A stretch of DNA of 64,000 bases from Phage NC-B. A program made the position numbers and the translations under genes. This document shows positions 315-49,754 of the stretch, in pieces. Positions within the stretch are counted from its first letter, which is position 1. Each line of letters begins with the position of its first letter. Under the pieces are notes generated by a model. That model did not search any database and was not told the DNA's origin. It worked only from the letters and a program-made list of their open reading frames with translations. The stretch lies in sequence record MK310183; one strand, given 5' to 3'.

Positions 315-326
315 GGAGGATTATAA

Positions 327-2558: not shown

Positions 2559-2562
2559 GATA

Positions 2563-2583: not shown

Positions 2584-2647
2584 GAGTGAAACTGGTGAAT
2601 AAGTAATGAAACTACTATATCCAAAAGGAAAATGAAAGGAGAAGAAA

Positions 2648-2866
2648 ATGAAAATGATGAAACAGGTAACTTATGGTCTAGCTTGCTTAGGGACAGGTTT
2701 TGTGATTTCCACAGCAGTACCTGTAAATGCAGTAGGCTCTCATTCTATTATAGAAGCTCCTGTAGAGAAGCTTAGTTCTCAATGTAAACAAAGGACCATT
2801 CAAAATAATTTGGTTGTTATTTGCCCAGACGCTCAATCTTCAGCTCTGAGAAAAATTCTTCCTTAA
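2648..2866 (+). CDS. Small membrane/secreted protein, possible lysis-associated (adjacent to lysozyme)
   Basis: AAAGGAG RBS; 72 aa with one N-terminal hydrophobic segment (YGLACLGTGFVISTAVPV). Confidence 0.35.
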   Translation: MKMMKQVTYGLACLGTGFVISTAVPVNAVGSHSIIEAPVEKLSSQCKQRTIQNNLVVICPDAQSSALRKILP

Positions 2867-2899
2867 TTGACCTAAAATAACAACAAAAGGAGGTCAAAG

Positions 2900-3391: not shown

Positions 3392-3403
3392 TGGAGGTGC
3401 CTT

Positions 3404-4207: not shown

Positions 4208-4216
4208 GGAGGAACT

Positions 4217-7237: not shown

Positions 7238-7243
7238 CAAATA

Positions 7244-7268
7244 GGGGCTTCGGCCCCTTTTATTGTTT
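7244..7268 (+). terminator. Rho-independent terminator
   Basis: GGGGC-TTCG-GCCCC hairpin followed by TTTTTATTGTTTTT. Confidence 0.6.
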
Positions 7269-7284
7269 TTAATTGGAGGTACTT

Positions 7285-32783: not shown

Positions 32784-33359
32784 TTAGTAAGACACGTCAC
32801 CACTGGAGTGGGACATGTTGCTCTTGACGAAGTAACAGAACTTGCCAAGACCTTCATTAATTTCTTGAAGCATACTCTGATCAACTGGATAGGTGCACAA
32901 GTCTGAATCAAACTCGTCCATCTTCTCAATGATACACATAAGAGTCATGCACATGTCGGAAAGCATACCGTCCATGTCGAGATCAGCGTTACCTTCTCGG
33001 AACCAAGCATGACCTAAATAGTTACTAGCAGTAGCATCCACTTTAACACAGTGAAAGCGCATACGCTCTGCTATTCGGTCGCCTGCCTCACGAGCATAAT
33101 CTTCTAGTTCATCGAACATACCATGAACACCTTGGAAACCAGCTCCAGAGACGTTCCAGTGGTAGTTCTTTGCTTTGATGTGTAGAAGTTCAAGGTTAGC
33201 TTGCACACCACACAAGATGTGTTCTAAGCTGTTACCACTAATCAGTTTATTCATTCCCTCAAGACGAGAAATAGAAGAGTCAGTAGTAGAGAATGGGTTG
33301 CTAGGACCCACTCTTGTTAGCTCTGGTAAATCGAAGACATTATTATGCATTAGGTGCAT
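32784..33359 (-). CDS. dps: Dps/ferritin-like protein
   Basis: Motif KNYHWNVSGAGFQGVHGMFDELEDYAREAGDRIAERM matches Dps ferroxidase-site region; start may be ATG at 33350. Confidence 0.5.
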   Translation of the reverse strand: MHLMHNNVFDLPELTRVGPSNPFSTTDSSISRLEGMNKLISGNSLEHILCGVQANLELLHIKAKNYHWNVSGAGFQGVHGMFDELEDYAREAGDRIAERMRFHCVKVDATASNYLGHAWFREGNADLDMDGMLSDMCMTLMCIIEKMDEFDSDLCTYPVDQSMLQEINEGLGKFCYFVKSNMSHSSGDVSY

Positions 33360-34172: not shown

Positions 34173-34706
34173 TTAGACACCCTTAGAAGCAACTACACCT
34201 TCGCTACCATTATAGCGACCCTTAACTGCATAGGAATGTTCACCAGCATGTGAATGCTCAAACATCACCATCTGACCAACACGCATACCAGCACGAACTC
34301 GTAAGCTGTGGTGCTTGGTTACGTTATGAAATTCGAATGTCAGCTTGCTGTTGTTAAACCCAGCGTCTGCCCAACCAGCATGTAAATGGTTCAGGCCACA
34401 ACGAGCCATCGAAGATCGCAAAACAAACAAACTGGAGATGTTATCTGGAAGGTTGAACTCTTCCATTGAGTGAGCCAAGAAGAATTGTCCCGGAGTGATG
34501 ATAATACCATCTTCAGGGATTTTTACTTCTTTCCACTTGAGGTTTTCTTTAGCATCAATGTCAACAATACCATCAGCCTGTTCTTCAACAAGGATAGTAT
34601 CACCAATGCGGATATCCACGCTAGCAGCGTTAACATATTTATGCTCCGCATCTAAAAAGCCATTATCAATAACGCTGTGTAATTCTTGAGAACCTAAAAG
34701 ACTCAT
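34173..34706 (-). CDS. dcd: dCTP deaminase / dUTPase-family enzyme
   Basis: Motifs ASVDIRIGD and GWADAGF consistent with dCTP deaminase family; ATGA overlap with upstream gene. Confidence 0.55.
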   Translation of the reverse strand: MSLLGSQELHSVIDNGFLDAEHKYVNAASVDIRIGDTILVEEQADGIVDIDAKENLKWKEVKIPEDGIIITPGQFFLAHSMEEFNLPDNISSLFVLRSSMARCGLNHLHAGWADAGFNNSKLTFEFHNVTKHHSLRVRAGMRVGQMVMFEHSHAGEHSYAVKGRYNGSEGVVASKGV

Positions 34707-36148
34707 GAGTTTCTGTTTCCTTGTACGGATGATGCCAAATTATTAATCATGTTGCGAGCTGTTTCACGAGATAGTGTAACACCTGCTAAGTTGTTACGAA
34801 GCTCACCAGATAGTTCACGAGCAGTAGCTCGAAGTTCTGCACCAAGTGCAGTGTCAGAGTGAGCCAGACCGTTACGACGACCAACAGGTCGAGGAGCTTC
34901 GTTAGCGTCATTAGCTAATGATGCAAAACCAATATGAGCAGCTTCACGAGCCGCTATAGCTGATACTCGATCTTCTGTAGGGGTTGGTAAATCACCAACG
35001 TCTACACGTTCGATATCACTAGCACGAATTCCACCAACAACAGATCTTACTGTTTCCCATGAACGACGAGAACGCTGCAAATCATCCATTGATGGAGAAG
35101 AAACAGGACGAGCAGTTCCCCCTGAGACATGCCATGTATGGTTGTGGGTGTCCGTCCCGGAAGAGCGTGAACTAACACGTAAGTCACCGGTAAAAGTTTC
35201 ACGAGGTGCCACTGTAGAAGGAGCTGCGAATCTTGCCTGTTGCCAAGAATCACGTCTGTTGGTTCCCGGAGTCCAAGGCTGCGTGATTGCTTCAGCACCT
35301 ATAGTGGTTAATCCGCTAGACCATTCTGTCTGTAGATTAACTTCCTCGTCCAGATAACTACGACCCCTTTCCTGAGGAATGTTTAATATAGTTTCCATCA
35401 TCTTCAGGGTATAATGACGACGCTGATTCTGATATAAATTTACACCAGCCATAGGTCCAACTAAATCACTAATCAGGTGAACTTCTGGCTCACCGAAAGC
35501 TCCCATTGCAAGGTGCATATATTCAGTAGAACTGCTATAAACTGCAACAGTTGCTTCAGGCCACTTCTTGTGAACATACTTCATTTCACGACTAGATACC
35601 ACAGGAATGTCACGAGTGTATGACATTGCAAACAAACCTTCGTTTGACACATACAGATTACCAAGAGTCATAAACCCTTGACAGATCATAGGGAAGCGAC
35701 GGCTTAAAGTGTCCATATCCAAAGGTAGATTAATCATCATCTGGATTTTAACTTGATCAATCTCAATTTCCAGAATCTCTTGGAAAGTGAAAAGCGCTTC
35801 AGCATAAGTTGTCCCGTTAACAGGTTGAACTAGTCGAGATGTTACTTGAAGTCCCTTACTCTCTGTCCAAGACAAGAAGTTGTCGAGGAACAGTGCAGCA
35901 TTGCCTACGTTAGCAGGGCTATTTTCCTGACGAGTGTTCCAACGAAGACCGCCTTGAACTAGGAAGATATCAACATCATTCGGAGTTCTATTTTGGAAGA
36001 ACGTATCACGGATAGCACCACCTGCAATAACAGGATAGATGCCATCAGGGACTACGTTATCTCTGATCAAATTACGAATCAGGTCAAGCCCTACACTGAG
36101 GGCTTCTCCTTCTTGAAGGTTCAATTCAGACAATGGAATCTTAATCAT
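34703..36148 (-). CDS. Pol-beta-superfamily nucleotidyltransferase (CCA-adding enzyme/poly(A) polymerase-like head) with Arg/Ser-rich low-complexity C-terminal half
   Basis: N-terminal VIAGGAIRD...PNDVDIF matches GG.VRD...D.DI head motif of class II tRNA nucleotidyltransferases; 481 aa. Confidence 0.45.
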   Translation of the reverse strand: MIKIPLSELNLQEGEALSVGLDLIRNLIRDNVVPDGIYPVIAGGAIRDTFFQNRTPNDVDIFLVQGGLRWNTRQENSPANVGNAALFLDNFLSWTESKGLQVTSRLVQPVNGTTYAEALFTFQEILEIEIDQVKIQMMINLPLDMDTLSRRFPMICQGFMTLGNLYVSNEGLFAMSYTRDIPVVSSREMKYVHKKWPEATVAVYSSSTEYMHLAMGAFGEPEVHLISDLVGPMAGVNLYQNQRRHYTLKMMETILNIPQERGRSYLDEEVNLQTEWSSGLTTIGAEAITQPWTPGTNRRDSWQQARFAAPSTVAPRETFTGDLRVSSRSSGTDTHNHTWHVSGGTARPVSSPSMDDLQRSRRSWETVRSVVGGIRASDIERVDVGDLPTPTEDRVSAIAAREAAHIGFASLANDANEAPRPVGRRNGLAHSDTALGAELRATARELSGELRNNLAGVTLSRETARNMINNLASSVQGNRNS

Positions 36149-36699: not shown

Positions 36700-37135
36700 A
36701 AGATTTTTCCAGATACCGCAAGGCGGAGCGTATAATCTCAAGGTCATCTTTTAAATAACCTATCCCTGAATTGCACGATCTGCATAGGATTCCTCTAACA
36801 ACACCTGTTTCGTGACAATGGTCCACACAAGCAATTTTACTTATGTTTTTCATTTCATCCGAGATGCTTAACTCTTTGCCGCAAATAGCACAAGAGTTAT
36901 CCTGAGAACCCAATAGAGCTTTGACGTCATCAAGACTTAAACCATATTGCTTCAGTGAGTTTTTCCTAGAAGCTTTTCGGTGAATCTCTTTAACACCCTC
37001 TATATTGTGATATCTGAACATAGTCCTGTCATTCATGCAGACTTTACAAGAAGACCTATACCTGCCAGACTCAGACCTCTTATAGAAAGCGTCTAGGGGT
37101 TTTTCAACCCCACACTTACTACAGGTTTTTACCAA
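36692..37135 (-). CDS. Endonuclease VII-type (His-Me finger) junction-resolving nuclease
   Basis: CSKCG...C..C...CAICG...[17 protein letters not shown] motif pattern as in T4 gp49. Confidence 0.6.
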
Positions 37136-38919
37136 GGCCGTGCCTCCCCATCTTGTGTTAGAAGGGAAGCTGCATCTTCTCCGTTGGTGACTGTAAACGG
37201 ATTATCTTCATCAACTTCATGATCTTCTCGTTCCACAAGACGACCTGTTTCGTTGATGTATTTGGTATAGCAAACCCCTGTCTGTCCATAGTTACGCTCT
37301 TTGAGCAGACGTATGATTGACAAGTTTTTACCTAACCCATCCGCTTGCTTATTACGTTCGAAACCGATAATACATTGACACCAGCGCATTAATGAACGTG
37401 AGCCAGTAAACTGTACTTCTTTAACCTGACCACCTTCTTCGTGAGGGGCACCGCCCGCCGGAGCATTCAAGTGAGATAACACAAAAGCAGTGAAGTCTAA
37501 TTCCTTACACATACCAGCAAGCTCTGAAGCAATCTTACTGATTTCTGTATTCACTTCGGATGGAGTTAAGTGAGATACCAATGCAGTGATGTTATCAAGG
37601 ATGATAAACTTACACTGATTCTCAACTACCCAAAAGCGAATACACTGCTTAATGTCTTCCCACTCATTCTGTCCAAAGTTGTCGTATAAGAAAAACTTAT
37701 CAGCGTATCGAAGTGCTTCATCTCGTAGCTGACTTTCTTCATACTCAACATCTGGTCGGTGAAATGGAACAGATGCAGACTTACCAGCAATGTTCTTAAC
37801 AGACATGCCTACCTTCTCTTCCAAGAAGAAGCCACCACCATTAAAACCATGCTCAAGGCAAAGCCATGCTACCAGTTCGTGTGCGATTAAGGTTTTACCT
37901 GAACCAACACCACCTCCGATTGCAACCATCTCTCCCCAACGAATACCAAAGGTCATGTCATTGAGAGTTTTCCACGGATAAGGGATACCCCATTCCGCTT
38001 TCTTCAGAGCGTCTTCAAGGCAGTCAAAAACTGTAACAGCTCCAGCAGGAGATTCCCGCTTAGCTGAATACTTCAGATTATTGAAAAGCTCTTGACCTCT
38101 CCCTGCCAGTAACATGTCGTTTGCATCTTTGATTTCCTTTTCCTGTCCGTTGTAAGTAAACGTACCTTTTGGAATTCTTGCAAACTTGACATGTGGGTAC
38201 AGAGAACGACCTTTAGTCAATGCAATCTCACCTGCATCATCATTGTCCATGCAGAGTACAATCTCCTCGAAACCGTTAATAAAATCACGATTTCTTGATA
38301 ACACAGAAGAGATTGAACCTGCACCGAACGGAAGAGAGACACAAGCAGGTTTGATATTAGTTGCGTTTGTGAACGCAGTAAGTACGTGGAATCCAGACAT
38401 ACAAGAGAGTGGGTCTTCAAAGATGAAGAGCTTCTTATTGTAAACATCGCCACGTTGTGCTTGAGCCATACCAAATAAGTCGGCTTCTTTCACATTACCT
38501 ACATAATAGAACTTCTTGCTGTCTAGAAGTTTTACTTCATATCCAACAATATTCCCATCACGTTCACGAGGGAAGAAGTAGCTGTCAGGAGTTTGACCGT
38601 CTGTTTGACTTAAACCAATACGGCATCCATAACGTTCAGATACAGCTTTAGGAATTAAGCGACGAGTCAATTCTCCCTGAGGAAGCTCTAAGCAATCGTC
38701 TAAGACTTCTCGGAGTTCTTCAGGGGACAGCTCTTTCTTTTCATTAGGAGTGGGCGTCGTTCCTTTCTCGAAGATTTCATACGCACCACATCTGTTACAT
38801 GAACCCCACTCCTCACCGGACTCTTCATTTCGGAAGAGAATCATGTGATTGCGGGTCTTATCACGACCATGAGAGATACACTCTTTACAGCCCGTGTCTC
38901 CCAAAATGATCTTTGACAT
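37129..38919 (-). CDS. Primase-helicase (T7 gp4-like: zinc finger, TOPRIM primase, DnaB-family helicase)
   Basis: AAGGAGG RBS; N-terminal Cys4 zinc motif, Walker A GGGVGSGKT, 596 aa. Confidence 0.8.
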   Translation of the reverse strand: MSKIILGDTGCKECISHGRDKTRNHMILFRNEESGEEWGSCNRCGAYEIFEKGTTPTPNEKKELSPEELREVLDDCLELPQGELTRRLIPKAVSERYGCRIGLSQTDGQTPDSYFFPRERDGNIVGYEVKLLDSKKFYYVGNVKEADLFGMAQAQRGDVYNKKLFIFEDPLSCMSGFHVLTAFTNATNIKPACVSLPFGAGSISSVLSRNRDFINGFEEIVLCMDNDDAGEIALTKGRSLYPHVKFARIPKGTFTYNGQEKEIKDANDMLLAGRGQELFNNLKYSAKRESPAGAVTVFDCLEDALKKAEWGIPYPWKTLNDMTFGIRWGEMVAIGGGVGSGKTLIAHELVAWLCLEHGFNGGGFFLEEKVGMSVKNIAGKSASVPFHRPDVEYEESQLRDEALRYADKFFLYDNFGQNEWEDIKQCIRFWVVENQCKFIILDNITALVSHLTPSEVNTEISKIASELAGMCKELDFTAFVLSHLNAPAGGAPHEEGGQVKEVQFTGSRSLMRWCQCIIGFERNKQADGLGKNLSIIRLLKERNYGQTGVCYTKYINETGRLVEREDHEVDEDNPFTVTNGEDAASLLTQDGEARPW

Positions 38920-38954: not shown

Positions 38955-39161
38955 TTAGTAAAACGATCGTATTTCTTCCCACACATCATCTTGCAAGTTT
39001 CTAAAACCCTGCAAGGTTTGCTTTGTTCTGTGAATAAATTCTTCAGAGTGCTTATCAGGTGTGAGCATACTGACAAACTTTTCATAGCGATTAATCTTCC
39101 ACCGCATCTTCAAGTAGTCAGATTCCAGCTTTCTTAACTTCTGCCTGTCAGTTACTGTCAT
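38955..39161 (-). CDS. Hypothetical basic protein
   Basis: Internal ATG at 39161 chosen to limit overlap with upstream gene; start uncertain (track 39257). Confidence 0.3.
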   Translation of the reverse strand: MTVTDRQKLRKLESDYLKMRWKINRYEKFVSMLTPDKHSEEFIHRTKQTLQGFRNLQDDVWEEIRSFY

Positions 39162-39579
39162 CCTTCTCACCTGCCAGATATGCTGTCCAGTCACCAGATT
39201 CAACCAGAACATCTTGTTCTTCGTCGATGTGATAAATCCACGCTTCCACAGTTTCACCGCTGTCCAATAATACTGGAATCAGCGTACGCTTGTAAAAGGT
39301 GTATGGGTTATCATTACCACGATGACCTTCCAGACCGTCATACGGACCTTCCAGACCAGCTTGGGTTGTTTCAAAGACCTCTACACGAACAGGCTTACCG
39401 TTGCTGTCATGCTCCAGAGATACACTTGGGAAGTATGCTGTGCAATACTGATACAGGTTACAGTTGTTTACTGTCCACCCTTCACCAATAGACACACCAC
39501 CTGCGCGAGCATTGATAGCGTGGTTGTGTTGACCTTTACGAAGAGAACCATACGTTGCAACTAATACTTTATCAGACAT
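39148..39579 (-). CDS. Gamma-glutamyl cyclotransferase-like (AIG2/GGCT family) protein
   Basis: AAAGGT RBS; N-terminal VATYGSLRKG (YGSL motif); 143 aa. Confidence 0.55.
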   Translation of the reverse strand: MSDKVLVATYGSLRKGQHNHAINARAGGVSIGEGWTVNNCNLYQYCTAYFPSVSLEHDSNGKPVRVEVFETTQAGLEGPYDGLEGHRGNDNPYTFYKRTLIPVLLDSGETVEAWIYHIDEEQDVLVESGDWTAYLAGEKDDSN

Positions 39580-39583
39580 TACA

Positions 39584-39781
39584 TTACCTTTTGTTTAAAA
39601 TTTCTTTTGTACAAGAAGTCCCGTTACACACGAGAACTGTTTGAGTTATAGAATCGACAACTGTTACATGGCTGCCGCATTGAGTTATGATTTGACCTCT
39701 CCCTGAATCTTTAGAGATGCATTCATCAGCGGCGATTGCTGACACACTGAATAAGGAGAGGAAAAATAGAATCTTTTTCAT
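39584..39781 (-). CDS. Small secreted Cys-rich protein
   Basis: Signal peptide MKKILFFLSLFSVSAIA then 6 Cys in 45 residues. Confidence 0.4.
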   Translation of the reverse strand: MKKILFFLSLFSVSAIAADECISKDSGRGQIITQCGSHVTVVDSITQTVLVCNGTSCTKEILNKR

Positions 39782-39787
39782 TGCTGC

Positions 39788-40204
39788 TTACCAATCATGT
39801 TGGAAACCAGAATATCCAGAGAAGATGATTGATCGGATTGGCTTTTCAGGGAATTCTTCAAAACATCCCTTAATGGCTTTCTTGGTTTCATCAGACATTG
39901 ACTCTTTTTCGCCAAACCAGTATTCTTCAAAAATATCAGAGAAGATATAAGTTCGGTATCTTTCCAAGTCATAAAAACCTTCCACTGCACCTGTAACAGC
40001 TCGACTGATCGTACTAGAAGCTACAGGAAATAAATCACTGTGCTCCATAAATAAACACCAACGATCAAAGAGTGGAATCTCTTCATCTTTCAGAAGACTC
40101 TCTAATTCTTCCTTTGCCTCTTTCTTATTCTTCTCAAAGAGGTTTTTGGAATATTCTACATCTAAGATACGACTCTTAAACATATCCAGTTTATTGTCAA
40201 CCAT
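39788..40204 (-). CDS. Hypothetical protein
   Basis: GGAGG RBS, ATG; 138 aa. Confidence 0.5.
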   Translation of the reverse strand: MVDNKLDMFKSRILDVEYSKNLFEKNKKEAKEELESLLKDEEIPLFDRWCLFMEHSDLFPVASSTISRAVTGAVEGFYDLERYRTYIFSDIFEEYWFGEKESMSDETKKAIKGCFEEFPEKPIRSIIFSGYSGFQHDW

Positions 40205-40260
40205 TTACAACCTCCAGTTAAATTCGAACTAGCCTCCTCTTTCGAAGAGGCTAAAGCAAA

Positions 40261-40446
40261 TTATTCTACTTCGAAGTGTTTGATCACACCAGTTAGTACA
40301 TCAGATTGGAATGTACCCACTAGCTCTGCGCCTCGGAAGAAATTGACATTTGTTCCTAGTGTTTCAAAGCGCTCTGCTTGAATGTCCAGAGATTGAATAT
40401 TCCCTTCTGATGTTACTGTACGAAACATGATTGTATATTTATTCAT
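40261..40446 (-). CDS. Hypothetical protein
   Basis: ATGA overlap with upstream stop; 61 aa. Confidence 0.35.
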   Translation of the reverse strand: MNKYTIMFRTVTSEGNIQSLDIQAERFETLGTNVNFFRGAELVGTFQSDVLTGVIKHFEVE

Positions 40447-40685
40447 AGACTTGTTACTCCCTTATCTGCTTGTGCAATAGCAAAAATTCGCTCTACACAT
40501 TCCATTGAGTCTTTATCACCACGCTTTAAGAAGGTGACGATAGCAGAGAATTGATTACCAATCATTCTCTTATTGGTGATACCAAACTCTTCACAGAGTT
40601 GGTTAATCATTTTACGAGAGCCTACAATCAGAGGCTCTTTTTCTTCAGTCATTCCACGGCTGATCAAATCTTCGATAGACAACAT
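40443..40685 (-). CDS. Hypothetical protein
   Basis: AAGGA RBS, ATG; 80 aa. Confidence 0.4.
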   Translation of the reverse strand: MLSIEDLISRGMTEEKEPLIVGSRKMINQLCEEFGITNKRMIGNQFSAIVTFLKRGDKDSMECVERIFAIAQADKGVTSL

Positions 40686-40711
40686 TACAAATTCCTTTTT
40701 GTTTAATTTAA

Positions 40712-41947
40712 TTATAGAGTTACTGCTACTTCGCTACCTTCAACATTGACAGACTCTAACTTGCGAGGGTTATGAATCTGGACTGGATTGACCGGAACGT
40801 TCCAACCACTGCGGTAGAAGTTACGACCATCACAGAACAGGATGACATTGGCAGACATTGCATTCGGTTGCAGGTTGTTGTGGACATGACGGATATTTGC
40901 AATCCAGTAGCCACGAGACAAAGTGTAGCCAGTAGGTGCATTACGAATAGTTTGAGTATTCATCTGACCTTCCAGTTGCATTTCTTCAGGAACCATATCA
41001 ACTGAATCAATCGGCTGTGCTACTTGTCCTTCCAGTGCAAAGTTTTCATCATCAGCACTTTCACTGTCATCAACCAACTCACCATCTCCGTCTTCAATCG
41101 GAGTCTGGTAAACCACTTTATACTGAGGAGTATAGAGAGGGTTCTGAGCTTTAACAAACTCAAGAATGTTATGACGGTAGGTATCCAGAGTTGTACCAGT
41201 CAGGCCCGGTGCTGTATTAACTTCCAGTACCCACGCTTCTTGACCTTTGGTGATAATATCAACTGCACCGAAATCCAGACCCATTGATTCAACAGCTTTC
41301 ACTGCATTGATCAGAGAGGCGTCATTCGGAGCATCTGTGAAGGAGCTTGAGTAAACCCAGCCAGTGTGGTGATTACGAATATCTTCACGATAGTTAGGGT
41401 CTTCGCGATAACCATTGCGACGAATCTTCTTCTGAACATAGGTGATTACACCTTTGAACACATGGACACGCCACTCACGACGTGGGCCTTGAATGCCTTT
41501 AGTGTACAGTTCAGCTCGACCAAGACCATCACCCGGTTCTACAACAACAATGCCCGAACCAGAGTGACCAGTCAGCTCATGGCGCTCATACACAATATTA
41601 CCAGTGTTTGACCACTCTTGAGCAGTCTCTTGAGCATCTGTGTATTCCACAGTTTTAACACCTGCTTGGTCCATCACGCTGAAAGCACGACGTTTGTTCG
41701 CTGCCATATGTAAGGCTGCGGTACGGTTAAGGACGGTTGAAGAACCAAAGAATGATTCAGGATAGCGACGGTTCCCGTAGTTAACAACCACATCACCTTC
41801 ACGAGAACGCCAGCGGCTATTCTCTGAAAGAAGACCCATCACGTTAGCATTGATGCGTTCATCACGGATAGTATCACTGATAGCAGATACTAGAGCGTTA
41901 ACAGAATCAGACGGGCCATACGGAAGAACACGGATACGAGTAGTCAT
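40712..41947 (-). CDS. ATP-grasp fold ligase
   Basis: Motifs EWRVHVFKGVITYV and AWVLEVNTAPGL match ATP-grasp (RimK/glutathione-synthetase-like) signatures; 411 aa. Confidence 0.5.
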   Translation of the reverse strand: MTTRIRVLPYGPSDSVNALVSAISDTIRDERINANVMGLLSENSRWRSREGDVVVNYGNRRYPESFFGSSTVLNRTAALHMAANKRRAFSVMDQAGVKTVEYTDAQETAQEWSNTGNIVYERHELTGHSGSGIVVVEPGDGLGRAELYTKGIQGPRREWRVHVFKGVITYVQKKIRRNGYREDPNYREDIRNHHTGWVYSSSFTDAPNDASLINAVKAVESMGLDFGAVDIITKGQEAWVLEVNTAPGLTGTTLDTYRHNILEFVKAQNPLYTPQYKVVYQTPIEDGDGELVDDSESADDENFALEGQVAQPIDSVDMVPEEMQLEGQMNTQTIRNAPTGYTLSRGYWIANIRHVHNNLQPNAMSANVILFCDGRNFYRSGWNVPVNPVQIHNPRKLESVNVEGSEVAVTL

Positions 41948-41950
41948 TTT

Positions 41951-42172
41951 TTAGATACCTTTTAGTTTAAGAATTTCGTTACGACAGGATTGAATTTTAG
42001 CTTCGATTGCCCAATACTCAGCGAACATTTCGTCTTCTTGGGCATCGCTTGGAGAGTCGATTAAGTTAAAAGCAAACGGATACAGCTTTCGCTGCTCCGT
42101 TACCAGTTGTTGAAGTCGGAGTTGTTGATACTCCAGCATTGTCAGGTGAGGCTTAGCTCCCCTGTTTGACAT
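41951..42172 (-). CDS. Hypothetical protein
   Basis: ATG at 42172 (track start is TTG at 42181); 73 aa. Confidence 0.35.
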   Translation of the reverse strand: MSNRGAKPHLTMLEYQQLRLQQLVTEQRKLYPFAFNLIDSPSDAQEDEMFAEYWAIEAKIQSCRNEILKLKGI

Positions 42173-42386
42173 GAGGCTCAACTTTAATCCCCTTCATTTT
42201 AACATAGTCAGCCAACACGTTATTAATAACGGTTGGAAAAGGGATTTCTACTGGAGAGTCAACCAGCTTCCCAATACCTTCTTGCATCCACTTCTGGATT
42301 GCTCGGAGGTTATCACATCCTGTGCTTGTCATCGGAATACGGCGGGTAGTTACCACGTTATCCAACATCAGTTTACGAACTTCCAT
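42153..42386 (-). CDS. Hypothetical protein
   Basis: AAGAGG RBS, ATG; 77 aa. Confidence 0.4.
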   Translation of the reverse strand: MEVRKLMLDNVVTTRRIPMTSTGCDNLRAIQKWMQEGIGKLVDSPVEIPFPTVINNVLADYVKMKGIKVEPHVKQGS

Positions 42387-42397
42387 AACTATACCTC

Positions 42398-44401
42398 TTA
42401 GTGTTTACCTTTACAGTAATCTGAATTACAGATCACCCTGTTTTCTTTGTTCAGTGAGCAAGTTTCTGCATCACGCCACGGAATTTGTTTATAACAGACT
42501 GCACAAAACCCAATTGAAGTCCAGAGGGCTTTTGTAAACTCAGCTGTTCGTTGTCCATCGTAACTGACAACTGTTTTTCGGAGAGAGGTTGACTTTTCTG
42601 GAAATGTCTCCGCTTTCTCAGCGGGTACCTCCTTTGGGGCATTCTTTGGACCATAAACAGAGATGGCATAGGTATCACCACCACGTTTTTCCAAATACGA
42701 ATTAGGAACATCTGCAAGTGTGATATCCCCTGAACGTTTTGCTGAGCTAACCATTACAATCATACGGCTAAGCATACGTTCATCAACACGAACAGCTACT
42801 TCAGGACGACGTGGGTTGGTTGTGTCCACTGCTTTAGTCCAAATATAACCCTCAGACAGCGTAACATTCTTTACTTTGTCTTTGATTTCTTTGGAGCAGA
42901 TATAACAAACGTCTTCACCACGAAGTTTACTCATTTCGTTGTCAAACTCGAAATCAGTCTTGACTTCACCACAGATAGCACATACACCCAAAGGCACATC
43001 TTCTTCCTCTTCAGAGGTTTTAGATAACGCTTCGAAGCATTCTGGATGCCAGTATGCCTGATAAGCAAACACAGCCTTACGAGCATCTTTCCAGTCAATG
43101 TGCTTATCACAACCACCACAGTCACCATGAGAGTGAGACTCCCAGAACTTACGAGTGACTTCTACACCATTCTTAGTGATGAAGGAGTCCTCTGCATCAA
43201 AAGGGATATCATCATCAAAATCAGCAGTAGTGCTTTGAGGCTCCTTATCTGTAGCATCAACAAACAGCCCTGAAGTTAGTACGAGGCGAATCATACTGTC
43301 CACTTCGGAGATACAAGCAATCGTCCCGCGATATACTACCTTTGGGTTTTCAAGAGCCTTAAGATATTCATCTTTGGCTACGTTGTGAACATCCCCTTCG
43401 ACATACTCTTGGGCTTTATCATCGTAGATGTAACCAACCATCTTACCACGATCTGTGTTGTTATAAGCATGGAACTCGTGAGGAATAATATCCACACGAC
43501 CATCACGACGATAAGGAAGACCACGATCGGCAGCCAGTTTGTTCTGGTCTTCAATCGCTTTACGACGACGAATGTCTCCGCTTGTCACGCCGGGCTTGTC
43601 GTCTTTGTTTCCGTAAATGTCGCTTGTGCTGCTGCTTGATTTGTTTGTCTGTTGGTTCTGATATAGAGAGGAGTTCGAGTAATAGCCGCCCCAGCGACTC
43701 GTTATCGTAAAAACCGGAAGCTTGTGCTCCACCTCTTGAACCAGAGTCATACGACTGTTAGACACATCAAAGATATACTCAGTTCCCACTTTACACTCGA
43801 AGTGGTCATTGATACGGTTCTTATGGGACTTAGAACGCTCTAAAATCCACATAAGCATAGCTTCTTCAGAAGCCCCAAACCAATCTAAACCACAACGGGC
43901 TAGGTGGAAAGGACGCTCATCATTACGGATAATGTGAAGCGTGTTGTCTTTAGCATCATGCCAAATCAAAGTGAATGCACCATCCAGTTTTTGGATAGTC
44001 TCTGCTGCTCCAATGGTGTTAATTGAGTGGCAGATGTTTTCACTATCAACTTCGAAACGTTTACTGTCAGGAAGGAGATCTTGATCTAACAGGGTTCCAT
44101 TATGAACCAGAGTGATATCACCGTGAGTAAATGGGTGAGCGTTTCGAGCATTGACAGCCCCACGAGTGGCATGTCGGCTATGACCAACAATCCACGAAGG
44201 AGGAACTACGTAGTTCGTAAGTCCTTTGGTAATATTCTTATATTCTGTCTGGAGCATAAAAGCGTAAGAAGGAAGAGCTTCTTTGTAAGAGAAGACTTGC
44301 TTTTCACCTTTACGCTGACCAAACACACCAGTTGAGTGCTGTCCACGGAAAACACCAGCATACAGAAGTTGGTTGAAAATATCCAAATCTGTTGAGGTCA
44401 T
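42398..44401 (-). CDS. Ntn-hydrolase / class-II glutamine amidotransferase-like protein with C-terminal Cys-rich zinc-ribbon region
   Basis: N-terminal region has GAT-II-like HSRHATRG...NAHPF...LVHNGTL but begins MTST (no Cys2); C-terminal half has several CxxC pairs; 667 aa. Confidence 0.45.
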   Translation of the reverse strand: MTSTDLDIFNQLLYAGVFRGQHSTGVFGQRKGEKQVFSYKEALPSYAFMLQTEYKNITKGLTNYVVPPSWIVGHSRHATRGAVNARNAHPFTHGDITLVHNGTLLDQDLLPDSKRFEVDSENICHSINTIGAAETIQKLDGAFTLIWHDAKDNTLHIIRNDERPFHLARCGLDWFGASEEAMLMWILERSKSHKNRINDHFECKVGTEYIFDVSNSRMTLVQEVEHKLPVFTITSRWGGYYSNSSLYQNQQTNKSSSSTSDIYGNKDDKPGVTSGDIRRRKAIEDQNKLAADRGLPYRRDGRVDIIPHEFHAYNNTDRGKMVGYIYDDKAQEYVEGDVHNVAKDEYLKALENPKVVYRGTIACISEVDSMIRLVLTSGLFVDATDKEPQSTTADFDDDIPFDAEDSFITKNGVEVTRKFWESHSHGDCGGCDKHIDWKDARKAVFAYQAYWHPECFEALSKTSEEEEDVPLGVCAICGEVKTDFEFDNEMSKLRGEDVCYICSKEIKDKVKNVTLSEGYIWTKAVDTTNPRRPEVAVRVDERMLSRMIVMVSSAKRSGDITLADVPNSYLEKRGGDTYAISVYGPKNAPKEVPAEKAETFPEKSTSLRKTVVSYDGQRTAEFTKALWTSIGFCAVCYKQIPWRDAETCSLNKENRVICNSDYCKGKH

Positions 44402-44508
44402 GTTGCCGCCAGCTAATACGATACCACAAATTTTCTAATCCACCTGAAGGGTAAACCCTTTCATCTAATTAACCTTTAAATGCGCCCTTTATCAGAGCGC
44501 CCATTGTG

Positions 44509-45609
44509 TTACAGCAGTCGTTCTAACTGCATTTCCAGATGATCTGGAATATAACCAGTGACATTATCATCACTACTGCCTGATTCACGCATCAATGCAA
44601 ACATGTGACGAATCTCACCAACCGTTGCGGTTCGTGTATTCTCAATCTGGTTAGAGTAATGAGATAAGATTTCTTCATAGACACGGTTAGCATTACCACG
44701 AACATATCCCAAGAAACCATAGAAGTCATTCATGTCACGAAGATTAATCAAGATTTCTCCATCAGAACCTGTCTGATGTACACGAACTCGACCGACCAAA
44801 GTTACAGATCGCTCACGACAGAACAGAATATCTCGAGCAAGACGATACCCTTCAGTGAGATCACTATCTCTTGGGGTGTAGTCTAGAGGTAGATGTTGAA
44901 TCATAGGAGCGAAGCGCAGCTCATTCAACTTCTCAACATAAGCTTCATTGTCTAAATCTGCATATTCAACAGCCAGTTTCTTGAGAACCAAGAAACGATT
45001 GACCAGATTTAGCAGCTGACTCTTTTTCCACTTCGGCTCTGAGATACGGAACTCAACAGAACCAAACTGAGAGAGAGGTAACAGATTAAGGGAGGTGTAC
45101 TTGTCCCAGCTATTAACAAGAGTACGGAAGAAATCTTCCCCATCTCGGTTGAACGCTGATGAAGCATTCATAACTTGAGCTTGAACAACAGCAAAAGCTG
45201 GGCAGAAGTTACTACGGTAACGATGATATCCAGAACATTTGAACATCATCTTTTCATAGAACGTCCACCCAAGAATAACTTTCTTAAGGATATTACTATC
45301 AGCGTCCCGCATATCCATATGAACGTGAGTGGAGCAGCGCCAAGTTCCCTCGGCTCCAGAATCCTGTACCGCTTCACTCAGATTGTTAATAGCACGAAGT
45401 AATTCTTCACCGTTGTAAGGTCGTGAACAAACTAACTCACAACCATCACGAAGAGAGCCGTCTTCAGTACAAACCCACATATCGACGTCAATGTCAGTCG
45501 TACCTTCAACCTCTAACTCAATACCAACACCACACTGAAAGGCAATACTTGGATGCGGTTCAGATAAGCGAGGGTTACGGTATCCAAAAACTTGTGCTAC
45601 GGTTGTCAT
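44509..45609 (-). CDS. Amidoligase-family (glutamine synthetase-like carboxylate-amine ligase) protein
   Basis: GGTGGA RBS; motifs GIELEVEG and RCSTHVHMD fit the amidoligase pattern; 366 aa. Confidence 0.45.
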   Translation of the reverse strand: MTTVAQVFGYRNPRLSEPHPSIAFQCGVGIELEVEGTTDIDVDMWVCTEDGSLRDGCELVCSRPYNGEELLRAINNLSEAVQDSGAEGTWRCSTHVHMDMRDADSNILKKVILGWTFYEKMMFKCSGYHRYRSNFCPAFAVVQAQVMNASSAFNRDGEDFFRTLVNSWDKYTSLNLLPLSQFGSVEFRISEPKWKKSQLLNLVNRFLVLKKLAVEYADLDNEAYVEKLNELRFAPMIQHLPLDYTPRDSDLTEGYRLARDILFCRERSVTLVGRVRVHQTGSDGEILINLRDMNDFYGFLGYVRGNANRVYEEILSHYSNQIENTRTATVGEIRHMFALMRESGSSDDNVTGYIPDHLEMQLERLL

Positions 45610-46232
45610 AATGATTCCACCAACTCTACATTATATGATGACAGGTCTGAAGAAATATGCTTGAACTTCTCCAGAAGGTTTAAAGATTGACGACCATTGT
45701 CGCCATAACCAGCTTCAAGAAGCACGTTTCCAACGTAAGCCCCTTTGTAATAAACTTTTCCATCGACAGGATTGATATAGATGAAACGAGTAACCAACCC
45801 TTCAAACTCTGGATTAAACAGGTTGTACACCAAATCACCCGGAATCGAACGTCCGAGAGAAGGTGGAGCACCACGAAGTTTATTCCCCATCAAGCCTTTA
45901 GCTCGCTGACGAACAGGGTTAATATGGGTCCAGCTCACCATGTTATTACCATGCTGAAGGTATCCTACATCTGGAGACTCCAGAATGAGGTTGTGATCAA
46001 ACACTGGGATATTACTAACAATCTGACGTTCAAACTGACCTTCAGAGTTTTTAGTCCAGCGTTCCGCCTCAAACACTAAAGACATTTCAGCGTCGTGTGA
46101 GTAGTCGTCGATATCAAAGTTACCTTGCTGACGAACATCAAGCACATATAGAGGGAGGTTTTTACCATCAGGTGATCGCTGAGCAATCCATGTTCCACAA
46201 TAATAGTGTTGAAAATCTCTTAACAGGCTCAC
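45606..46232 (-). CDS. Hypothetical protein in amidoligase cluster
   Basis: GTG start 5 nt after AAGGTGA RBS; ATGA coupling to downstream gene; 208 aa. Confidence 0.45.
   Translation of the reverse strand: MSLLRDFQHYYCGTWIAQRSPDGKNLPLYVLDVRQQGNFDIDDYSHDAEMSLVFEAERWTKNSEGQFERQIVSNIPVFDHNLILESPDVGYLQHGNNMVSWTHINPVRQRAKGLMGNKLRGAPPSLGRSIPGDLVYNLFNPEFEGLVTRFIYINPVDGKVYYKGAYVGNVLLEAGYGDNGRQSLNLLEKFKHISSDLSSYNVELVESL
45625..45633 (-). promoter_or_regulatory. Candidate promoter element (variant TAATGTAGA)
   Basis: Minus-strand TATAATGTAGA ~20 nt upstream of amidoligase ATG. Confidence 0.25.
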
Positions 46233-46241
46233 AATATCACC

Positions 46242-47048
46242 TTATACAATCTGGAGTTTAGAGGAGAATTTATCCGCTTCTTTAACATCGTTACTGTTGA
46301 TGATGTTGTGAAGCTTTTCAATTGGAAGGCGAGAGTGAAGTGACATCAATACTTCTATATCACAACCCTGAACAACCTTATCCACTTGCTCATAAACAAA
46401 CTTGCGAGTGGACTTATCACCAATCCAGAAGTTAGAAAGAGAACGATATTCAATACCGTAATCTTTGTAGCGAATGGCAGAAGCCTTTCCGTACAACTCT
46501 TTACGACGAGTGTCTTTATCCATGATCACAGCTGGCAAGGACAGGAAGTAATCACACAACACACCCAACATCATTTGAGTTTGTCGAGTAATCTCTAAAG
46601 TCCCGGAGACACCAAGGTGCACATGACCCCCAGCAGTACGCAAACCTTTATCAGTTGCGACCGGTGAAGGGTTCTTTTGTCCAGTGAAGGCATTGAAATC
46701 AGGAGTACAACCAAATACAAAGGCTGACGGATGGAAAGATTCAAGCTCTTCTGAAGTGAACACATGAGAGCTAATCCCAAGTGCTGCCTCCATGCCACGT
46801 TCATTGAGAACTTTGTTAGTCAGATCAATACCGCGCTGAATGTTATCATCAAACGCTTCAAACCCTTTCTGTGGGTTAATATCAAACTCGGCCAGAACGT
46901 TGTCTTCTTGAAGACGAACATCAGGAGCCAGATCAATTTTATTATCTTTAGAACAGCCCAGCTTACCAGCCACAGAGGTGATAATACCGGAAGCAGTACG
47001 AACAAACATTTCAGGGTCAGAGCCAATAAGGAAAGCGCGCTTAGTCAT
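46242..47048 (-). CDS. Second amidoligase-like protein
   Basis: ATG at 47048 coupled (ATGACTAA); motifs GSDPEMFV and GGHVHLGV; 268 aa. Confidence 0.4.
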   Translation of the reverse strand: MTKRAFLIGSDPEMFVRTASGIITSVAGKLGCSKDNKIDLAPDVRLQEDNVLAEFDINPQKGFEAFDDNIQRGIDLTNKVLNERGMEAALGISSHVFTSEELESFHPSAFVFGCTPDFNAFTGQKNPSPVATDKGLRTAGGHVHLGVSGTLEITRQTQMMLGVLCDYFLSLPAVIMDKDTRRKELYGKASAIRYKDYGIEYRSLSNFWIGDKSTRKFVYEQVDKVVQGCDIEVLMSLHSRLPIEKLHNIINSNDVKEADKFSSKLQIV

Positions 47049-47991
47049 TGTAATACTCCACGAGTTCATCAAAAAGGGAAACAACACGAGCACCAGCTTC
47101 TTCTGGTGTCATTGAGGAAGGTACTGCTTGCATCAGACGTTCGATAAAACTTCGAACAGTAATTCTGTCCATACGCTGATCTAATACTTCTCGCTTGTGA
47201 CCTGCACAAGTTGACCAGAGACGTAACCACTCACTCATACTCTCATAATGGTCAGGGTCTTGGTCACGACGACGTGCCATACGACGGAGAACTCCATCAT
47301 TATGGTTTCGTACATAACCATCTCGGTTGTCATCAACACCGAATACATTCTGAACCCATACGTTTTCAGAAAATTCATCAGTGGTGCAAATTAATGGCAG
47401 AAATGCAATTGCACTCATGTCGCCATCAAAATAAGTCGCTGCTGACTCATCGGTTGAGTCTACGTCATTACTATAACACCAGCGACCAAAGAAGTTACGA
47501 CTTAAACCAGCTAAGCGTAGAGCTAAACCGATTCGTTGTCGCTTAAGCAACTCTTCCTTGTCTTGTACGCCTTCCTGAAGGAACTCCATTCCATTAAAAT
47601 CACCATCCAAATAGCTACGGATGGTCATTAGTCCAGTAAACACCTTGTCTGCTGGATGGTTTCGAAGGTTCACGGCAATGGAGTTCACCGAAGTGACAGA
47701 GAACATATCTTTATAGCAAGACATTGAGTTAAAAATATCTGTTGCTTCAACTAAAGCTCTTTCGATATCTTTAGCTGGCACGCCATAAAAATTGTGAGGC
47801 CAGAAGTTAATAACTTCAATTTCTGAAGTTCTATCACGAAGGCTTGTTCGGTTACGACTTTCACCGTTAATGTCTGTAACAGAATACATGTGCATGCAGT
47901 TAAAAGTACCAAAGCAAGCTCTTCCTTTGAACACTGACTCACCGAAATCCTCTGCCGGTGTTACCGGAGCAATCGATGCGGAGATTGACAT
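47041..47991 (-). CDS. Hypothetical protein in amidoligase cluster
   Basis: AGAGG RBS, ATG; 316 aa. Confidence 0.5.
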   Translation of the reverse strand: MSISASIAPVTPAEDFGESVFKGRACFGTFNCMHMYSVTDINGESRNRTSLRDRTSEIEVINFWPHNFYGVPAKDIERALVEATDIFNSMSCYKDMFSVTSVNSIAVNLRNHPADKVFTGLMTIRSYLDGDFNGMEFLQEGVQDKEELLKRQRIGLALRLAGLSRNFFGRWCYSNDVDSTDESAATYFDGDMSAIAFLPLICTTDEFSENVWVQNVFGVDDNRDGYVRNHNDGVLRRMARRRDQDPDHYESMSEWLRLWSTCAGHKREVLDQRMDRITVRSFIERLMQAVPSSMTPEEAGARVVSLFDELVEYYND

Positions 47992-47999
47992 ATTCGCCT

Positions 48000-49217
48000 C
48001 TATTTATTAAAGAATAGTTTTTCCATAATGGTTTCCCACTCTTCTGAGGGGAGGGTTGAGAACCCGTTTCCGTGAAGCCTGTTTGTCATGCAACTAATAA
48101 TATTGTACATGTTGTAGCTTCGGGTGGATTCTGTTCCATTGTTCCAGTTATAACCGAAAACAATTTTATCGAAGGAGGTTTTATCCGTAGTTACTTCTCG
48201 GATAAACTCAACCAAGAGCGATTTCTCTGTGATGACCGCACGTTCACCATCTGGCAGATTGCAATACTGAGGAAGAAGGATTGGTAAGAACATCGAATTG
48301 TTCACTCGACAATCACGAACACCTTCACTGCGATAGATTAGGCTTGAGAAGTCTTCATCACGCAGGTGTCCTTCACCTTCAGTGTATTCACACTGTCGCC
48401 ACTTGGTCTGGCGAGGCTCAATCATTGTACTACCAACGCCTACTGTATACAGAGACGCTTGGAAAATACATGAATCGTAATCATTCCCCGTTAAAGCAAC
48501 TTGCTCGTTGCCGAACACATCCACTGAAGAGTTAATCAGTCGGCTGAATGCAAGAGAGGCTAAAGGGGACCAGCCTTTCTTATACATCTTGTTCAGCATT
48601 TCATACACAGCAGATTTTTCATCATCTGTATAGAATGTACGATTCAGCATCAGATAGAACAGAGCGCGATCAGCAGGACAACCATCAGTACAAACACCCA
48701 TGAATCCTACTTCATGCCATACCAGACATGAGTCAGAATCTTTATCCATGAATGCTTCAAAGGCTTCCATTACAGCCCTGTCAGTAACATCAGGACGGTT
48801 GTTTTCTTCTGCCCATGTTTCTACATGAGAAGGAGGACGAGGGTCTCCATTCTCCACCCCTTCGCGGAAATATTGAGTGGTAATAGGCTTTTTATCACCA
48901 TAACGTTTTACACCATAAGCGGGAAGGTGTGTACCAGAGTTCCAGATGTACTTAATTTCGGACATAGGCATCATGTTTTCGAGAACGTTCTCTTCAGCAG
49001 TGCCTTGACGAACCATCATATTTTCACTCCACACCTTAATGCGGATATTCCAGCCGTAGTTGCTGTCGTATGTGCAGTAGTAGTCAGGATCACCGTCTTC
49101 ATCTTCACCATAATCACCACCCTGATAGTAACCCGCTTTCAGGAAACCATAACAAGGAGGCCAAACAGTTACAACGTCTTCTGATTCTTTCCAGCTTTGA
49201 AGTGTTACAGGGAACAT
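48000..49217 (-). CDS. Hypothetical protein in amidoligase cluster
   Basis: ATG at 49217 with AAAGAGG RBS (track start 49316 overlaps upstream gene); 405 aa. Confidence 0.5.
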   Translation of the reverse strand: MFPVTLQSWKESEDVVTVWPPCYGFLKAGYYQGGDYGEDEDGDPDYYCTYDSNYGWNIRIKVWSENMMVRQGTAEENVLENMMPMSEIKYIWNSGTHLPAYGVKRYGDKKPITTQYFREGVENGDPRPPSHVETWAEENNRPDVTDRAVMEAFEAFMDKDSDSCLVWHEVGFMGVCTDGCPADRALFYLMLNRTFYTDDEKSAVYEMLNKMYKKGWSPLASLAFSRLINSSVDVFGNEQVALTGNDYDSCIFQASLYTVGVGSTMIEPRQTKWRQCEYTEGEGHLRDEDFSSLIYRSEGVRDCRVNNSMFLPILLPQYCNLPDGERAVITEKSLLVEFIREVTTDKTSFDKIVFGYNWNNGTESTRSYNMYNIISCMTNRLHGNGFSTLPSEEWETIMEKLFFNK

Positions 49218-49227
49218 TTTTACCTCT

Positions 49228-49590
49228 TTACTCTGATACCAGAAGGCCCAGAGATTTGCGAATGTAGTCAATACTACGGAAGTTTCGATAGTTCTCTTGG
49301 AAGCGCATCTTTTCAAACTCTGCTTCCTGAAGCTCTACCTCTGCTGCTTTATATCCCGATAAAGCTAAACTCACCACATCCTGAGGCAAGACATTACGAC
49401 GACGAATAAGATATTTATTCGCTTTTAATTTACCTTGTGCACGAGCCATTTTGGCCTTTGCCGCCTTGATTCCATGAGAAATCCAAAGCAGTTGCTGCTT
49501 CAGGTCTTCCTCGTCCATACCACCTAAATCGTTTGCTACTTTATGCAGCGTAGACAGGTTTACATGGCCTTTAATGGGGCGTAGGTTCAT
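49228..49590 (-). CDS. Hypothetical protein
   Basis: ATG start; 120 aa basic helical protein. Confidence 0.45.
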   Translation of the reverse strand: MNLRPIKGHVNLSTLHKVANDLGGMDEEDLKQQLLWISHGIKAAKAKMARAQGKLKANKYLIRRRNVLPQDVVSLALSGYKAAEVELQEAEFEKMRFQENYRNFRSIDYIRKSLGLLVSE

Positions 49591-49754
49591 AACTTCTCCT
49601 GTTTGTCACATTGATTGGTTAGCCAGTTGTAAGACCCTCTGTTATTCTTGCTTAACTCACAAGATACAAAGGAAGTCACACGGGCAAACCCCACAGTGGC
49701 TAAGCAAATAAAGATTGCTGCCAATAAGAATTTAGCTTTCAACTTATTATCCAT
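49587..49754 (-). CDS. Small secreted/membrane protein (55 aa) absent from the ORF track
   Basis: AGAAGAGG RBS; signal-like KFLLAAIFICLATVGFA; stop overlaps next start (ATGA). Confidence 0.35.
   Translation of the reverse strand: MDNKLKAKFLLAAIFICLATVGFARVTSFVSCELSKNNRGSYNWLTNQCDKQEKL

Follow-up and report, generated by a model that had tools for sequence, protein, structure and literature searches.

Gene content of the locus

We analysed a 64,000-nucleotide stretch (the window) of Phage NC-B (sequence record MK310183), an E. coli podophage of the genus Kuravirus (Gordonclarkvirinae, phiEco32-like). At 39148-49217, the window carries a cassette of carboxylate-amine ligase, ATP-grasp, amidotransferase and cyclotransferase genes which had been singled out in an earlier note made from the sequence alone. 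The open reading frames (ORFs) listed in that note all exist where it placed them, and all genes of the block lie on the minus strand. The cassette spans ca. 10 kb, corresponding to roughly 13% of the ca. 76 kb genome, and matches many Kuravirus genomes at 95-97% identity along its entire length, among them HC-25922, IME267 and 4E8, with ECBP2 at ca. 88%. Families were assigned using Pfam, PHROGs and NCBIfam, and the core of the cassette reads as follows, in the direction of transcription:

48000..49217, minus strand: P10, 405 residues, soluble, opens the cassette proper; without Pfam or NCBIfam family, fold matches nothing solved
47041..47991, minus strand: P9, 316 residues, second gene of the tandem pair that precedes the ligase gene; no Pfam match above threshold, PHROG 13102
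46242..47048, minus strand: COOH-NH2 ligase type 2 (GCS/GS-like carboxylate-amine ligase), 268 residues; Pfam PF14395, PHROG 3815
45606..46232, minus strand: P7, 208 residues, sixth member of the universal core, invariably flanked by the two ligase genes; without Pfam or NCBIfam family
44509..45609, minus strand: Amidoligase_2 (GS-like amidoligase), 366 residues; Pfam PF12224, PHROG 7469
42398..44431, minus strand: class-II (N-terminal nucleophile, Ntn) glutamine amidotransferase (GAT), 677 residues with an ATT start; Pfam GATase_6, 2.6e-14
40712..41947, minus strand: RimK-like ATP-grasp ligase, 411 residues; PHROG 2599, 1.4e-170; NCBIfam MptN, 3.6e-9
39148..39579, minus strand: GGACT/AIG2-like gamma-glutamyl(amine) cyclotransferase, 143 residues, last cassette enzyme; PF06094, 8.9e-16; PHROG 2520, 4e-41

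Annotation transferred from the curated Bas86 genome places small early genes on one side of the block and genes for a primase/helicase, an exonuclease, a 'nucleotidyltransferase' and a dCTP deaminase on the other. Start and stop codons overlap as ATGA at 45606-45609, 40443-40446, 49587-49590 and 34703-34706, which bears out the translational coupling noted earlier, and the P9 and COOH-NH2 ligase genes overlap by 8 nt (47041-47048). Because the cassette is so highly identical in many Kuravirus genomes and its order is kept at 27% protein identity, its genes are not chance ORFs. Membrane-grade hydrophobic segments were found in none of the eight cassette proteins.

Conservation and published descriptions

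A tblastn search with the COOH-NH2 ligase returned 309 phage records, led by phages of Pseudomonas (121) and Escherichia (94), with Vibrio, Aeromonas, Proteus, Salmonella, Cronobacter, Salinivibrio, Pseudoalteromonas and Rhizobium as further hosts and a planctomycete phage. In the LUZ24-like Pseudomonas phage Ab22, two proteins of ca. 320 residues are followed by the COOH-NH2 ligase, a 189-residue protein, the amidoligase, GAT, ATP-grasp and GGCT proteins and the primase/helicase. The same gene set is present in Salinivibrio phage CW02, Rhizobium phage RHph_N3_19, Proteus phage 3H10_20 and a metagenomic relative with 27% identity. The five enzymes are linked across lineages by BLAST, with the ATP-grasp, GAT and GGACT proteins orthologous to Ab22 ORF24/26/27 and CW02 gp3/12/16. 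Together with P7 they occur in the same order in Kuravirus, Bruynoghevirus, Privateer-like phages, Zobellviridae and one Rhizobium phage. The marine and soil versions (CW02 and RHph_N3_19) add a Peptidase_C26 enzyme.

The cassette is the already described phiEco32/LUZ24/phiRIO-1-type 'gamma-glutamyl / unusual peptide bond' module, and its finding here is a rediscovery. PF14395, PF12224 and the ATP-grasp, GAT and AIG2/GGACT genes lie in one block in the conserved order 5' of the primase/helicase gene. Families, order and position are those of the phiEco32, LUZ24, phiRIO-1 and CW02 cassettes, from which the window copy differs in nothing essential. Compared with Bas86, it has an uninterrupted ligase gene and an insert encoding a 65-residue peptide and a DUF7020 protein. 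Papers citing Iyer 2009 and Hardies 2013 (PMC5498523, PMC4819975, PMC6256558, PMC11945000) describe a gamma-glutamyl/unusual-peptide-bond or putative peptidoglycan-modification module and list it as common to phiEco32, LUZ24, PaP3, tf, PA11, 7-11, CW02 and phiRIO-1. No functional experiment on the cassette was found in this literature, in which the content of Iyer 2009 and Hardies 2013 is given second-hand. The earlier note overlooked the published cell-wall modification hypothesis and overrated the novelty of the combination, since the same set has been described in phiEco32, LUZ24 and relatives. What we add is modest, namely the revised start of the GAT gene, the recognition of P7 as the sixth core gene and the unmatched fold of the P9/P10 pair.

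In the study of the related phage SU10, the ATP-grasp, GAT and GGACT-like (YtfP/UPF0131) proteins are among the 'early gene products' detected by mass spectrometry. With regard to defence or anti-defence, PADLOC models gave no matches. First described by comparative genomics more than 15 years ago, the cassette has retained its gene order in podophage lineages that are very distant from each other, among them abundant marine phages, and its carriers include phage-therapy groups such as Kuravirus (E. coli) and Bruynoghevirus (P. aeruginosa). Its function, once known, would reveal widespread phage reworking of host chemistry and could account for why Gordonclarkvirinae resist restriction. With the BASEL isolates (Bas86 and relatives), which plate on a derivative of E. 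coli K-12, genetics is now practical.

Enzymes of the cassette

Both genes that had been proposed as amidoligases were matched to such families by profile search. The COOH-NH2 ligase matches PF14395, named 'Phage phiEco32-like COOH.NH2 ligase-type 2' in Pfam, at 2.7e-8 (33.8 bits against a cut-off of 25) and PHROG 3815 at 4.9e-112, where the alignment begins at the ATG at 47048. Amidoligase_2 matches PF12224 at 1e-8 (35.8 bits against a cut-off of 22) and PHROG 7469 at 2.3e-139, and its homologues are detectable by BLAST in Ab22, CW02 and a further relative, labelled L005 here. A sequence search for solved relatives of the two GS-like ligases found none. The window gene for the COOH-NH2 ligase is uninterrupted. 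Its Bas86 counterpart (12479-13787) is annotated as a split coding sequence whose two parts are joined across a stretch holding an HNH endonuclease gene; this arrangement looks like an intron with a homing endonuclease. In UFV-P2, an HNH gene lies between the amidoligase and GAT genes.

The ATP-grasp protein consists of a core (ca. residues 1-260), an acidic linker and a C-terminal domain of ca. 70 residues (PHROG 20552 on 336-402), and shares its core with Ab22 ORF26 and CW02 gp12 as detected by BLAST. The PHROG 2599 and MptN matches, the latter over residues 71-251, support an ATP-grasp fold as assigned in the earlier note, while the RimK match is partial. The NCBIfam RimK family is reached at 9e-7, Pfam RimK stays below its cut-off (7e-4, 19.6 bits against 21), and TIGR00768 (RimK family) scores 28.5 bits against a cut-off of 143.4 with residues ca. 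215-253 aligned. A full-length match to RimK alpha-L-glutamate ligases above a family cut-off was thus found in neither Pfam nor NCBIfam. RimK, the L-glutamate ligase of ribosomal protein S6, nevertheless provides the best solved relatives (5zct/4iwx at 2e-3 in the PDB) and is among the best NCBIfam matches. Only the C-terminal ATP-grasp subdomain aligns (residues ca. 193-253), and in contrast to RimK the phage protein has the additional acidic linker and C-terminal domain.

In case of the GAT gene, the family assignment stands (GATase_6) but the start codon had to be corrected. The previously proposed ATG at 44401 deletes the catalytic cysteine, the nucleophile of Ntn enzymes. Upstream of this ATG, the frame contains a TAG stop followed by ATT-TGT-GGT-ATC-GTA, ten codons upstream of the ATG, which reads (f)Met-Cys-Gly-Ile-Val, and only with the ATT start does the catalytic Cys directly follow the initiator Met. 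A Shine-Dalgarno sequence (AGGTGGA, 44445-44439) with a 7-nt spacer precedes the ATT at 44431, orthologues in three other lineages begin with MCGIV, MCGLV or MCGII from an ATG, and in Bas86 the gene is likewise taken to start at the ATT. Based on the loss of the nucleophile and the agreement of these three lines of evidence, we place the start of the gene at ATT 44431. The rare start codon (44429-44431) might point to low or regulated translation. Several deposited relatives, 4E8 among them, are annotated with the shorter ATG form and thereby lose the catalytic Cys.

The GAT motifs HSRHATRG, NAHPF, VHNG and DSE align with HTRWATHG, NAHPH, VHNG and DTE of the E. coli GlmS glutaminase domain (1xff), at positions which we take to be Arg73, Thr76, Asn98-Gly99 and Asp123, the glutamine-binding and oxyanion residues. 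EgtC is among the weak NCBIfam matches. The C-terminal region of ca. 440 residues contains three Cys-rich zinc-ribbon-like motifs, with CxxC at 438, 484, 509 and 643. No known acceptor (synthase) domain was detected in residues ca. 240-677 using Pfam, NCBIfam and PDB families, save for a weak LIM-like zinc motif.

The cyclotransferase assignment was confirmed by the GGACT match listed above. YGSLRKG and VEVFE of the phage protein align with YGTLRKG and VEVYE of PH0828, and BLAST finds the gene in Ab22, CW02 and L005.

P7, P9 and P10

The three large proteins that had been described as lacking motifs indeed belong to no Pfam or NCBIfam family. They are, however, part of the conserved cassette and not unrelated filler. 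The P7 profile weakly matches exactly the positional equivalents in other lineages, and a profile-profile comparison gave 94.95% probability (E 4e-8, 165 columns). The ligase-P7-ligase triad is therefore universal. P7 is predicted to form two SH3/Tudor-like barrels with an invariant basic loop, and this most conserved stretch of the protein, PVRQRxKGLxGNK (106-118), is predicted to be disordered. Such a combination is expected of a loop that becomes ordered in the active site of a partner. Judging from sequence and structural model, P7 is thus probably a non-catalytic adaptor or scaffold and possibly a substrate.

For P10, the structure prediction is confident and no solved fold matches it. 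Many of its polar residues are invariant, and among 1.84 billion proteins it has only 24 relatives at cluster level. Only 17 homologues of P9 were found, all of them at least 41% identical, and its positional orthologue in L005 is 27% identical. Foldseek searches against viral models matched P10 to proteins of ca. 290-320 residues in related phages, two each in GAP52 and LAh_8. The P9 hidden Markov model (HMM) matches gp089 of 3H10_20 at 4.4e-5 and the P10 HMM matches gp090 at 2.7e-4, both weakly. Based on these Foldseek and HMM matches, P9 and P10 appear to form a tandem pair that heads the cassette and evolves quickly. Only the Foldseek matches hint at a common fold of P9-like and P10-like proteins. 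The idea that P9, P10 and P7 are mutual paralogues received no support from hhalign.

A putative install-and-trim pathway

We give an even chance to a general reading in which the cassette would encode a cytoplasmic pathway that installs and then trims amide bonds on a small molecule or short peptide. Every step outlined here is derived from family membership. The three ATP-dependent carboxylate-amine ligases (COOH-NH2 type 2, Amidoligase_2 and RimK-like ATP-grasp) would each form one amide bond, most likely of the glutamyl type, on a short peptide or on a small host compound with an amine or carboxylate group. Cys1 of the Ntn GAT would cleave glutamine or a gamma-glutamyl amide, after which the enzyme would pass ammonia to a ligase-activated carboxylate or trim the product, and GGACT would remove an exposed gamma-glutamyl group as 5-oxoproline. 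P7 would probably hold the two GS-like ligases together or present the substrate, and P9 and P10 may contribute an additional step that is specific to the lineage and possibly catalytic. The peptidoglycan stem peptide or its cytoplasmic precursors would be the leading candidate substrate, which comes from the literature and not from this analysis, with superinfection exclusion or priming for lysis as the proposed purpose.

Support for a small-substrate pathway comes from the family matches of the five enzymes (Pfam, PHROGs, NCBIfam, RimK in the PDB and the PH0828 motif alignment), from Cys1 and the GlmS-aligned motifs of GAT and from cassette proteins without membrane-grade segments. The shared order of the five enzymes and P7 across lineages, the proteins detected in SU10, the lack of known hypermodification entry enzymes among the scanned window proteins and the restriction-sensitive DNA of a LUZ24-like carrier of the module point the same way. 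The published comparative genomics, to the extent that it is relayed in the citing papers, arrives at the same chemistry. In this respect the interpretation in the earlier note is partly supported: multi-step amide-bond formation and trimming is upheld by the family matches and the glutamine-binding residues that GAT shares with GlmS.

The closest install-then-trim parallels are BtrJ/BtrG in butirosin, EgtA/EgtC in ergothioneine biosynthesis and PuuA/PuuD in putrescine use, with GshA/GshB as a further parallel. As in the phage cassette, BtrJ/BtrG pairs an ATP-grasp ligase with an enzyme of the GGCT fold, and the two corresponding genes abut in LUZ24-like phages. Unlike the butirosin system, the cassette has no acyl carrier protein, PLP decarboxylase or acyltransferase, and possesses two extra GS-like ligases and an Ntn-GAT. 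GshA/GshB likewise combines a GCS/GS-like ligase with an ATP-grasp ligase, and EgtC and PuuD are gamma-glutamyl amidohydrolases of the Ntn or C26 type, as found in the cassette (C26 in CW02 and RHph_N3_19). The likeness to the glutathione, ergothioneine and Puu pathways is at the superfamily level only, with no NCBIfam equivalog model reaching its cut-off, and P7, P9 and P10 are without counterpart in them. The Peptidase_C26 family includes gamma-glutamyl hydrolases; its member here would bring the kinds of enzyme that cleave gamma-glutamyl groups to three, and this lends further weight to the gamma-glutamyl reading.

The Peptidase_C26 enzyme of CW02 and RHph_N3_19 also parallels the PuuA/PuuD putrescine pathway and in this way bears on a catabolic or salvage role, in which the cassette would redirect the host's pools of glutamine, glutamate, glutathione or polyamines, for instance by first gamma-glutamylating amines and then cleaving them. 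This would serve to feed nucleotide synthesis or to adjust the counter-ions of DNA instead of making a specific end product. Every enzyme family of the cassette handles glutamine or gamma-glutamyl compounds, the cassette sits with replication genes and near nucleotide-metabolism genes, and one paper treats these genes as 'host material recycling genes'. Three ATP-consuming ligases would, however, be a costly route for degradation, and the strictly conserved P7 and gene order point to a defined product made in several steps. We thus consider salvage rather improbable.

Several observations weigh against the small-substrate pathway. The match of the ATP-grasp protein to RimK is partial. The SH3/Tudor-like barrels of P7 with their invariant flexible basic loop look like macromolecule recognition, and the same is true for the zinc-ribbon-like motifs in the C-terminus of GAT, which do not resemble small-molecule metabolism. 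The peptidoglycan substrate is association-based and remains a guess. Further, restriction-modification systems are unusually ineffective against Gordonclarkvirinae, for which no modification pathway is known, and the window contains sites for EcoRI (9), EcoRV (24), EcoKI (8) and EcoP1 (111).

Macromolecule recognition would fit a protein tagging or carrier system in which the ligases build glutamyl or peptide adducts on a protein while GAT and GGACT process or remove the tag. Proposed targets are the invariant Lys/Gln-containing P7 loop, with P7 as carrier or scaffold, or a host protein such as ribosomal protein S6, the RimK substrate. The universal conservation of P7 between the two ligase genes, its barrels of a protein- or peptide-binding type with the invariant yet disordered loop, and the closeness of the ATP-grasp protein to RimK-type glutamate ligases speak for tagging. 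In addition, epsilon-(gamma-glutamyl)-lysine is a substrate of GGACT enzymes, and the Pup ligase PafA belongs to the carboxylate-amine ligase superfamily. As far as known, however, GGACT acts on the free isodipeptide and not on protein-bound substrate. A Pup-like GGQ/GGE or LysW-like EDWGE tail was not found among the C-termini of all small ORFs in the block. Only a 61-residue protein ends in Glu (...EVE), and this protein is not conserved outside close relatives. Taken together, tagging appears unlikely.

Restriction resistance and DNA modification

The resistance of Gordonclarkvirinae and the restriction sites in the window also favour a role in DNA or nucleotide modification, in which a base or nucleotide would receive an amino acid or peptide from the ligases. 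As restriction sites are present, site avoidance alone does not explain the resistance and is only partly true as its cause. DNA modification was the option listed first in the earlier note. It draws further support from the primase/helicase gene that always abuts the cassette, and from amidoligase/amidotransferase Pfam-match genes that co-occur with thymidine-hypermodification genes in metagenomic contigs (Lee et al., PMC8989533). Like those clusters, some of which hold genes matching amidoligase and amidotransferase families, the window cassette is phage-borne and near replication genes.

In contrast to the thymidine hypermodification clusters, the scanned window proteins include no source of 5-hydroxymethyldeoxyuridine, 5-HMUDK or aGPT-Pplase. 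Neither a ThyA-type dUMP hydroxymethylase nor a TET/JBP enzyme was found among these proteins or in the Bas86 annotation, and the sole thymidylate synthase is ThyX (PF02511, 1.1e-42). For 5-HMUDK and aGPT-Pplase, the negative result covers the 20 larger window proteins (Pfam) and the Bas86 annotation; the 481- and 246-residue proteins have no assigned family. ThyX and the dCTP deaminase Dcd fit an ordinary dTTP supply, and 11 of 16 restriction enzymes cut the DNA of the module-carrying LUZ24-like phage U17. Lineages with the cassette have the replication module in common as well, e.g. the split polymerase/exonuclease, and adjacency to the primase/helicase gene is therefore probably inherited and not independent evidence. 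To our knowledge, a GS-like amidoligase acting on DNA is without precedent, which we also count against this reading. DNA hypermodification is thus disfavoured and the option weakened by the missing entry enzymes and the cut U17 DNA. A role in DNA or nucleotide modification that explains the resistance seems highly improbable. The narrower claim that the Kuravirus cassette puts an amino-acid or peptide adduct on DNA or on a nucleotide before its incorporation, and that this causes the resistance, has a very slight chance of being correct; if true, it would be a hypermodification route built on GS-like amidoligases and without precedent.

Site counts in the window vary between recognition sequences. 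CCWGG (Dcm/EcoRII) occurs at 4 sites where ca. 145 are expected, GATC 129 times (237-291 expected), and palindromes of 6 bp 626 times (809-1076 expected). PstI and SmaI sites are absent and BamHI, SalI, KpnI and SphI have one site each. Sites for EcoRV, HindIII, HpaI and XbaI are not depleted.

Near the cassette, the 481-residue protein at 34703-36148 (minus strand) is called 'nucleotidyltransferase' in relatives and has no Pfam or PADLOC match. Its gene shares an ATGA overlap with the dCTP deaminase gene. The SU10 counterpart is labelled as a class II CCA-adding enzyme domain, and the BASEL authors suspect that the 'nucleotidyltransferase' and dCTP deaminase pair underlies a DNA modification. 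The product of 32784-33359 (minus strand), a 'DNA binding protein' in Bas86, matches a ferritin-like domain over residues 59-102 (PF00210, 7.3e-8).

Accessory and neighbouring genes

The remaining genes in and next to the block are the following:

49228..49590, minus strand: conserved basic protein of 120 residues, immediately upstream of the cassette; 32% identity, E 1e-11, to the positional equivalent in L005
42153..42386, minus strand: small conserved gene, 77 residues, DUF7195-like; 57% identity to the L005 gene carrying PF23825 DUF7195
41951..42181, minus strand: small conserved gene, ca. 73-76 residues; 40% identity to the positional equivalent in L005, annotated in Bas86
40443..40685, minus strand: small conserved gene, 80 residues; 39% identity to the positional equivalent in L005
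40261..40446, minus strand: small gene, 61 residues, C-terminus ...FEVE; present in Bas86, no homologue detected in the relatives L003-L005
39788..40204, minus strand: DUF7020 protein, 138 residues, accessory; Pfam DUF7020, 5.8e-21; present in L005, absent from Bas86
39584..39781, minus strand: peptide of 65 residues, hydrophobic and signal-like near its N-terminus, 4 Cys, accessory; absent from Bas86
37129..38919, minus strand: DNA primase/helicase, conserved downstream neighbour, context only; Bas86 annotation, same neighbour in Ab22, CW02, L005 and RHph_N3_19

The 65-residue peptide had been counted as a secreted member of the cluster. Its ORF exists, but together with the DUF7020 gene it is accessory, as both are absent from Bas86-type relatives. 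It shows no similarity to the 65-residue ORF at the equivalent place in L005. Membrane-grade hydrophobic segments were predicted only in this peptide and in the product of a 55-residue gene (49587-49754).

A terminator-like hairpin at 49799-49782 on the minus strand, GGCTCTCTTAGGAGAGTC followed by a T run, lies upstream of the 55- and 120-residue genes and suggests that a transcription unit begins at ca. 49780. The 120-residue gene is possibly in the same transcription unit as the cassette.

In CW02 (2-7801), eight small cassette proteins end in P-x-(L/I)-L-E-(E/D)-N-(V/I/L/A) and several of them are clear paralogues. This C-terminal motif overlaps a conserved TTGGAGGAGAATGTATGA, which comprises a Shine-Dalgarno sequence and overlapping start and stop codons. 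These 'LLEENV' tails were considered as possible ligase substrates and set aside, as the motif coincides with the conserved Shine-Dalgarno and ATGA coupling sequence. Because of this overlap, the tail motif is at least partly a by-product of translational coupling, with the conserved Pro and Leu lying outside the Shine-Dalgarno sequence.

Among other records, that of Vibrio phage V07 (MT135025.1, 349 kb; UNVERIFIED_ORG), a T4-like Schizotequatrovirus, carries a VPp1-like podophage cassette beside a terminase gene near its end and is probably a chimeric assembly.

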